64,000 nucleotides of DNA from a bacterium (GTDB lineage Bacteria; Patescibacteriota; Minisyncoccia; JAHIHE01). Numbering within the stretch: position 1 is the stretch's first letter; each line of letters starts with the position of its first letter. The notes below the pieces were generated by a model. The model ran no database searches and had not been told where the DNA came from. It worked only from the letters and a program-made list of their open reading frames with translations. Of the stretch, positions 63,833-63,870 are shown one piece after another. Location of the stretch: assembly GCA_030693205.1 (NCBI GenBank), contig JAUYBG010000010.1, positions 66,059 through 130,058 of the forward strand, written 5' to 3'. The translations under genes were made by a program, and so were the position numbers.

Positions 63833-63870
63833 AGAGAGAGAGAGAGAGAGAGAGAGAGAGAGAGAGAGAG
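63833..63870. repeat. (AG)19 dinucleotide microsatellite, about 120-155 bp upstream of the surface-protein start
   Basis: Uninterrupted agagag... x19. Confidence 0.9.

Follow-up and report, generated by a model that had tools for sequence, protein, structure and literature searches.

The Helicobacter pylori outer-membrane protein genes oipA, hopZ and sabA carry runs of the dinucleotide CT early in their coding sequence and are intragenic contingency loci, and the lic and mod genes of Haemophilus influenzae carry intragenic contingency repeats of tetranucleotides. In other genes the repeat belongs to the promoter, as do the (TA)n tract between the -35 and -10 elements of H. influenzae hif and the homopolymers of Neisseria meningitidis porA and opc. 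A 6-bp repeat in the mismatch-repair gene mutL of Salmonella and E. coli is a mutator switch. N. meningitidis nadA has TAAA repeats upstream of its promoter (PMC2791445), and repeat contingency loci are the subject of general reviews (PMC11868660 and PMC3315296). Diversity-generating retroelements (DGRs) of the Patescibacteria, or Candidate Phyla Radiation (CPR), have been described as a "CPR set" with B3 architecture (PMC5758913) and as DGR clade 2 (PMC8144416), and term searches of these two papers turned up no repeats, no frameshifts at the 5' end of the reverse-transcriptase (RT) gene and no phase variation. A search of the full-text literature (DGR, phase variation, simple sequence repeat, Patescibacteria, CPR) found no repeat switch in a DGR RT. 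To our knowledge, the regulation of DGR activity is largely unknown.

We have analyzed a 64,000-nt stretch of DNA from ultra-small bacteria of an uncultured Patescibacteria lineage (hereafter the window), near the end of which a tract of 19 AG units appears to sit 11 codons into a DGR RT gene, divergent from a gene for a surface protein. We consider it likely that (AG)19 acts as a contingency repeat within the gene, its changes in length switching translation of the DGR RT and, hence, hypermutation on and off. The kind of mechanism, an intragenic contingency repeat, is known; the kind of target, the engine of a hypermutation retroelement, and the group of organisms are new.

As in the H. pylori and H. 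influenzae intragenic loci, a perfect non-triplet repeat lies a few codons past the start with a wrong-frame stop close behind it, and relatives of the locus show single-unit changes and natural in-frame and out-of-frame alleles. In contrast to those loci, the switched gene would be a mutagenesis machine, the DGR RT, rather than a surface antigen or a restriction-modification enzyme, and the host is a member of an uncultured CPR lineage rather than a host-adapted pathogen. The tracts reach 19-21 units and are longer than is typical of the H. pylori CT tracts. The likeness to promoter-repeat systems is that the repeat occupies a 5' or intergenic region beside a surface gene, and distal spacing effects of the nadA type are conceivable; however, our tract is not between the predicted -35 and -10 elements, is coding on the other strand and tracks the RT gene. 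As with the mutL switch, a change in repeat number would reversibly turn a source of mutation on or off, but the mutL change is in frame and acts on the global mutation rate, whereas the change here would be a frameshift that affects only the DGR target region. Finally, the locus resembles the described CPR DGRs in the homology of its RT, in being chromosomal and cell-encoded and, in relatives, in the presence of Avd, of Lcl_C or C-type-lectin-like targets (..YVRCVR) and of adenine-mismatched TR/VR pairs.

The perfect 38-bp AG repeat that an earlier note on this DNA had claimed at 63833-63870 was confirmed by reading the sequence, by Tandem Repeats Finder (period 2, 19.0 copies, 100% matches) and by a separate scan for simple sequence repeats (SSRs), which found no other dinucleotide run of at least 10 nt within the 64-kb window. 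The note had also held a chance origin to be unlikely, and it was right to do so: 200 first-order Markov simulations based on the window gave a mean of 9.3 nt for the longest dinucleotide run and a maximum of 13 nt, and the length of (AG)19 is far beyond chance. The minus strand of the tract is (CT)19 and the plus strand reads A-(ER)6-V within the RT ORF. Its codons are exclusively GAG and AGA, whereas genes of the window use GAG for 25% and GAA for 75% of Glu, and AGA for 31% of Arg (P ~2e-7). It follows that the repeat is kept as DNA and not as a selected peptide. An 8-nt direct repeat, TAAATCCG, on both sides of the tract was taken to be a coincidence; it is absent in relatives and is explained by N-P codons. 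No second copy of the window locus was found by exact-protein look-ups, a metagenome flank-pattern scan, a viral-contig scan or a protein search with the RT fragment, and a scan of a genome collection returned only relatives of at most 49% identity. Elsewhere in the window, a perfect (AAATCCC)4.6 repeat (6400-6431) codes for ..NKSQIPNPKSQIN.. in a gatB-like ORF (6046-7602, plus strand), and a change of one unit would frameshift this essential-looking gene.

On the plus strand, an ORF runs from ATG 63801 through the tract, as (Glu-Arg)6, into an RT N-terminus and remains open to the last base of the window, which cuts it (63801-64000, MKIVSLNPNTA-(ER)6-VNPRSDIPAPSNPQDYSGFSFENLLIAYYQCRKTKRKSSSAAK...). 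Translation from 63792 gives a stop and then MKIVSLNPNTA-ERERERERERER-VNPRSDIPAPSNPQDYSGFSFENLLIAYYQCRKTKRKSSSAAK. The program-made ORF list omits ORFs that run past the window end, and this one was not reported in the earlier note. The part following the tract is 65% identical to the RT P0176 and 58% identical to the RT of the related locus L001 (BLAST; 66 RT codons lie in the window, with the catalytic domain beyond 64000). Both are Pfam RVT_1 proteins, and the L001 RT belongs to a DGR with TR and VR. A conserved RT N-terminal motif, GFSFENLLIAYYQCRKTKRKSSSAAK (63921-63998, plus strand), holds columns that are invariant in an alignment of 18 RTs (F44, F46, L49, Y53, C56, R57, K60, R61 and A66). 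The leader codons, MKIVSLNPNTA (63801-63832, plus strand), align as DNA with the leaders of L110 (MKSISQNPTFRT), L001 (MINYTTKPEFPHTS) and L003.

No Shine-Dalgarno sequence is evident before ATG 63801, and the plus-strand RT frame contains no ATG, GTG or TTG from the tract to the window end. In tract-less relatives (L007, L029, L039, P0131, P0151 and P0173), a leader of the form M-x-N-Y-[IT]-[IT]-K-S is fused in frame to the RT. Because related leaders are contiguous with the RT in these relatives, we take the leader ATG to be the real RT start, and ATG 63801 is presumably the start actually used. The tract-less P0151 reads MNNYATKRNF-ER-VNPRSDVFSF, with one Glu-Arg where others show a run, and the tract therefore looks like the expansion of a short GAGAGA site.

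The tract begins 11 codons past ATG 63801, in frame with the RT motif, and brings a non-triplet unit close to the 5' end of the ORF. Strand slippage during replication would add or remove AG units, each 2-nt step shifting the RT body out of or into frame. At 19 units, ATG 63801 is in frame with the RT, which would be the ON state. At 20 units the leader frame would end at the TAA that abuts the tract (63871-63873, plus strand), and at 18 units it would end at a TGA (63932-63934, plus strand), the tail of an ORF at 63761-63934 that closes with ...RERERESKSALGYSCPVKSAGLFGVFF before its stop; both states would be OFF. The remaining two upstream frames in the window are without an ATG, so only one frame in three would be ON. 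Because the RT is the engine of adenine-directed mutagenesis, here presumably of a gene for a variable surface protein, the repeat would serve as a random and reversible on/off switch for targeted hypermutation. The observed basis of this proposal is the position and frame of the tract, the homology to DGR RTs and the ladders of ON and OFF lengths in related populations.

Between the tract and the RT motif, the window carries an in-frame insertion, codons IPAPSNPQDYSG, with a CCCCG...CGGGG hairpin (63889-63923, plus strand) that corresponds to an 11-residue gap against P0176 and L001 in BLAST and is present in the centroid fold. Similar elements are found in L039 and L002, that of L039 being a CCCCG...CGGGG hairpin with a differing inner stem, and L110 has about 60 nt of 'aattcgcgtaattcgt'-type repeats between tract and RT motif (~808-886). 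From these four loci, insertions seem to be especially frequent in the N-terminal extension of the RT. That the conserved flank is a non-coding RNA or a terminator was ruled out: Rfam contains no match for it, and RT coding sequence accounts for its conservation.

The comparison loci (L numbers) were fetched via the surface protein and via the RT, and related loci contain Avd genes and Lcl_C-type targets ending in ..YVRCVR. Mismatches between TR and VR fall at TR adenines in 15 of 16 cases in L001, 18 of 18 in L015, 17 of 19 in L009, 12 of 12 in L016 and 20 of 23 in L121, and TR/VR, Avd and target features were found in L001, L004, L007, L009, L015-L017 and L121. Judged by these patterns, the RT family of these relatives evidently belongs to working DGRs. 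Within the 64-kb window itself we found no TR, VR, Avd or target; in the window-like relatives L109 and L110 all of these lie past the RT, that is, at the equivalent of beyond 64000. The window does contain two pairs of dispersed direct repeats (29543-29690 with 27684-27831, and 57543-57617 with 45725-45799; 91% and 88% identity), which were ruled out as a TR/VR since their mismatches show no adenine bias. We also rejected the idea that the tract is part of a TR-RT spacer of the DGR RNA, because in L001, L007 and L015 the TR is encoded on the opposite strand, next to the end of the RT gene that is away from the tract.

AG tracts of 9-43 nt occupy one RT codon position in the window and in L001, L003, L006, L009, L015, L021, L038, L040, L109, L110, L112 and L121. 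Where the surface gene and the RT are 1.2-2.7 kb apart with other genes between them (L001, L006 and L121), the tract stays with the RT. An in-frame RE run of 3-11 residues follows the leader in 37 of 120 RT cluster representatives, all of which are at least 56% identical to the L001 RT, and the tract was seen in 3 of 80 more distant metagenome RTs. Related loci amounting to 797 kb, taken together with the window, contain 21 dinucleotide SSRs of at least 12 nt, of which 19 are AG/CT, and an (AG)n-TAA(A) junction is common to L001, L003, L004, L006, L009, L021, L040, L109, L110 and L121. Other repeats were seen in these loci as well: L109 has a compound (GAAA)11 then (GA)12 tract at its RT 5' end (2811-2878), with no ATG in any upstream frame, and L059, a locus with a related RT, has an 85-nt heptanucleotide repeat, (GAAGCCA)12 (1459-1543).

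Length variation was found in one natural population in which the flanks are identical on both sides. Its contigs (JGI, ENA and Logan), which come from a lake series (JGI 3300028156-3300028193, SRR84372xx), form a ladder of tracts of 13 nt (L119, L120), 15 nt (L121-L125), 17 nt (L126-L130) and 19 nt (L117, L118), and lengths of 21 and 23 nt are indicated by the proteins P0268 and P0202. At 15 and 21 nt one ATG leader is in frame with the RT, at 17 and 23 nt a second ATG leader is in frame, and at 13 and 19 nt the RT frame is without a start; all three frames are represented overall. The DGR of this population is evidently active; its TR is constant, and the differences among three VR variants fall at adenines of the TR (22/22 and 18/20). 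Two of the VR variants are each paired with both a 15-nt and a 17-nt tract, which implies recurrent tract change, an argument weakened by the fact that these are consensus assemblies and may be chimeric.

Alleles that would be ON and OFF, with identical RT bodies, also occur together inside the 90% clusters P0155, P0202, P0215 and P0160, and in the clusters P0155, P0215, P0160 and P0125 identical RT bodies come with differing RE lengths and leader frames and with truncated calls. In all three truncated calls that were checked in DNA (P0136, P0139 and P0216; loci L109, L110/111 and L112-116), the RT ORF is intact and the tract that precedes it is out of frame. Such putative OFF alleles with an intact RT ORF comprise L001, L110/111, L112-116, P0250, P0251, P0254, P0255 and P0264. 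In L001 and L110 the conserved leader is in a different frame from the RT, and L110, whose leader aligns with that of the window, offers the clearest comparison: the L110/L111 leader frame runs through the tract and ends at TAA, and one more AG unit would restore the L110 frame. The earlier note had proposed to look for differences in repeat number among strains. These exist in the 13-19 nt ladder of the related population, but the L112-type lineage has the same 32-nt tract in all five of its assemblies. ON lineages number 6-7 of 10 versus about 4.3 expected from random frames, which is no difference and is uninformative. We infer that the window's own tract varies in length too; OFF alleles are presumably without RT activity, and they may be rescued by ribosomal or transcriptional slippage. 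A second length polymorphism was seen upstream of the RE run in one 90% cluster, where a Thr/Asp-rich repeat of the leader reads TDTTDKTTDN in P0160 and TDTTDTTDTTDKTTDN in P0260.

The tract could instead be a neutral coding microsatellite, in which case it would encode a linker of Arg and Glu that a disordered N-terminal extension of the RT tolerates, and its length would drift without a regulatory role. This would fit the many lengths of the in-frame alleles, the tolerance of the region for in-frame insertions (63889-63923 in the window and about 60 nt in L110) and the poor conservation of the leader peptides. We nevertheless consider it unlikely, as out-of-frame alleles with an intact RT are common (the 13- and 19-nt ladder alleles, P0250/P0251/P0254/P0255, L001, L110 and L112), and a run of 19-21 perfect non-triplet units resembles a contingency locus, whereas neutral linkers mix synonymous codons. 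Moreover, a different repeat unit arose at the equivalent site in L037, where (CA)17.5 (2957-2991), read as (His-Thr)n, lies between a leader MKFVP and the motif of an RT that is 49% identical to P0176. This argues for selection on a slippery tract and not on an Arg-Glu peptide or an AG-specific property. No SSR was found at the RT 5' end in 80 viral-contig DGR RT loci (300 kb), which also speaks against a neutral linker.

The reading offered in the earlier note was that of a switch in the promoter region of the minus-strand surface-protein gene, with tract length altering promoter geometry or the phasing of an upstream element. This gene (61447-63783) has its annotated start at ATG 63714, which gives 755 aa, and an alternative start at ATG 63783. 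The 755-aa product is identical to the NCBI MAG protein P0001, and the protein has a signal peptide and GW-rich N-terminal repeats, while its C-terminal part contains a CarboxypepD_reg domain and a TM helix. The alternative start is only 50 nt from the tract, and the close relative L110 must use the equivalent ATG. The note had placed the tract about 120-155 bp upstream of the start at 63714, in agreement with the 119-156 nt that we measured on the minus strand. Its 818-aa surface protein, however, was a mechanical ORF, open through the tract from TTG 63903, for which there is no homolog support and in which relatives carry stops; the annotated product is the one of 755 aa.

A strict scan for sigma-70 promoters came up empty in the intergenic region, and a search for extended -10 motifs was more informative, TGNTANAAT occurring at 40 sites in the window versus 16.5 expected (0 of 100 shuffles reached 40). 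The predicted extended -10 of the surface gene, TGATACAAT, lies at 63807-63815 on the minus strand, inside the RT leader codons, and boxes equivalent to it sit 20-30 nt from the tract in L001, L003, L109 and L110. That of the RT gene, TGGTATAAT, is predicted at 63733-63741 on the plus strand, in a block, TTTCTAACGGGGTAAATGKTATAAT, that is common to L110. With these predicted divergent promoters (63733-63815), transcription would start near 63748 on the plus strand and near 63800 on the minus strand, and the 5' ends of the RT and surface transcripts would be antisense to each other over about 50 nt.

Relative to the predicted promoter of the surface gene, the tract occupies about -33 to -70, beginning 21 nt upstream of the hexamer and extending away from it, which is a suggestive position for a promoter switch. 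The divergent layout of surface gene and RT recurs in L002, L003, L021 and L110, and in L109 with a Bro-N gene between, and the antisense overlap makes a coupling of the two genes conceivable. However, the promoter-proximal flank of the tract is fixed, and repeat number therefore cannot change the spacing of -35 and -10; as far as the predicted promoter can be relied upon, the repeat lies neither between these elements nor at a defined operator. Where the two genes lie apart or share a strand (L001, L006 and L121), the tract goes with the RT; its place is a conserved codon position of the RT ORF, with which it is in frame, and no tract is present upstream of the surface gene in L028 or in the L001 spacer directly before the surface gene. 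On these grounds we regard a promoter switch of the surface gene as quite improbable, although the tract may have a secondary effect on surface-gene expression. The idea of phase variation put forward in the earlier note is thus largely right, in that tracts of a related population vary in single dinucleotide steps, but the gene and the mode that it assigned, the surface gene through its promoter, were wrong or at best secondary.

The surface gene can itself be the target of a repeat, which is a further point in favor of that promoter reading. In the window, both plausible starts (63783 and 63714) are downstream of the tract, and the placement known from H. pylori is absent. It is present in L015, where (CT)10.5 (235-255) is part of the sequence that encodes the signal peptide of the surface homolog. 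There the leader, MKMCMEKENSLIRRVFS(SL)n, reaches a TAA and the mature part (VNAPVLVLVLLFASSFLSPNLVFA followed by SDTNGT) is in another frame; therefore, the surface homolog looks OFF in that assembly. A CarboxypepD_reg surface gene adjoins DGR cassettes in many Patescibacteria (e.g. L002, L003, L015, L109, L110 and L121), and a TM protein of about 120 aa comes after the surface gene in the window (60917-63783 region), L002, L003 and L015. We suggest that the surface protein may share a surface structure with the DGR-diversified Lcl_C protein. As far as we have searched the literature, we have seen no description of a linkage between DGRs and a CarboxypepD_reg surface protein.

It is very unlikely that the tract belongs to a leader-peptide attenuator, in which the frame of a short leader sets where the ribosome stops relative to a terminator hairpin and so controls transcription read-through. 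Some loci do have the appropriate parts: L004 has a significant hairpin with a T-run (z = -3.6) behind its leader ORF and tract, in L057 and L070 a short ORF with (TC)n and a terminator-like hairpin precede the RT ATG, a TAA right after the tract is widespread, and in the window the CCCCG..CGGGG hairpin abuts TTTTCTTTT at 63924-63932. But post-tract segments fold no better than shuffles (15 loci, Stouffer Z = -1.1; window segment z = -0.55), the T-run is accounted for by conserved I-F-S-F codons, and the window leader is simply fused to the RT. That the tract is an artefact of assembly or sequencing, for instance a chimeric join at a site of low complexity, is scarcely credible. Contigs ending inside such tracts (L040, L070 and L117) do indicate that these are difficult for assemblers, but on either side of the window tract the sequence is collinear with homologous loci obtained in many independent projects, and more than 20 assemblies have the tract at one and the same codon position.

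Repeats of this kind also occur in other settings. Long perfect AG tracts that are not joined to an RT lie upstream of a DGR target gene in L004 (5893-5928), L008 (4075-4099) and L007 (5594-5612), each with a short ATG leader before it (MRE.., MRD.. or MKSNP), and they may be what is left of former RT 5' ends, or else attenuators that depend on the repeat. In L057 (410-440) and L070 (1-26), (TC)n lies in a tiny ORF, MNI(SL)n-stop, ahead of the terminator-like hairpin and an RT start MSEVFNLEKLY, and in one frame out of three, translation would continue through the hairpin. Together, the tracts of L004, L007 and L008 and those of L057 and L070 hint at a second, attenuator-like use of repeats. 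L007 also contains a MITE-like hairpin element of 108-113 bp in four copies within 13.6 kb (1242-1349, 4012-4119, 5614-5726 and 12711-12821; 98-100% identity), one of them directly after the solo AG tract.

The existence of long perfect tracts detached from the RT in L004, L007 and L008 means that switching the RT frame is not the sole role of such tracts. A broader reading, whose chances we judge to be even, is that a clade of Patescibacteria controls its DGRs by hypermutable dinucleotide repeats, through a slippage switch in the RT and through sister modules, with the (AG)19 of the window being an RT switch in the ON state. The sister modules, which are found at the 5' end of the DGR target gene or of the linked surface gene (L004, L007, L008, L015 and L057), would then be further switches and would form with it one small set of phase-variable genes around a retroelement.

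One lesson is practical: gene callers truncate or misplace the starts of these RT genes, and surveys may consequently class OFF alleles as degraded DGRs. The idea of a repeat switch in the RT is directly testable with existing metagenomes, by comparing the frame of the tract with the diversity at adenine sites in the linked variable region. As far as we have searched the literature, no phase-variation system has been described from the Candidate Phyla Radiation before, and such a switch would be the first.

Organisms of the Candidate Phyla Radiation spend their lives attached to host cells, and they rely on recognition at the surface. Continuous mutagenesis should erase the beneficial variants that it has made, and a built-in, random on/off switch of the RT would be a simple answer to this problem. 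A lineage with such a switch could freeze a useful ligand-binding variant on its surface, or resume the search.
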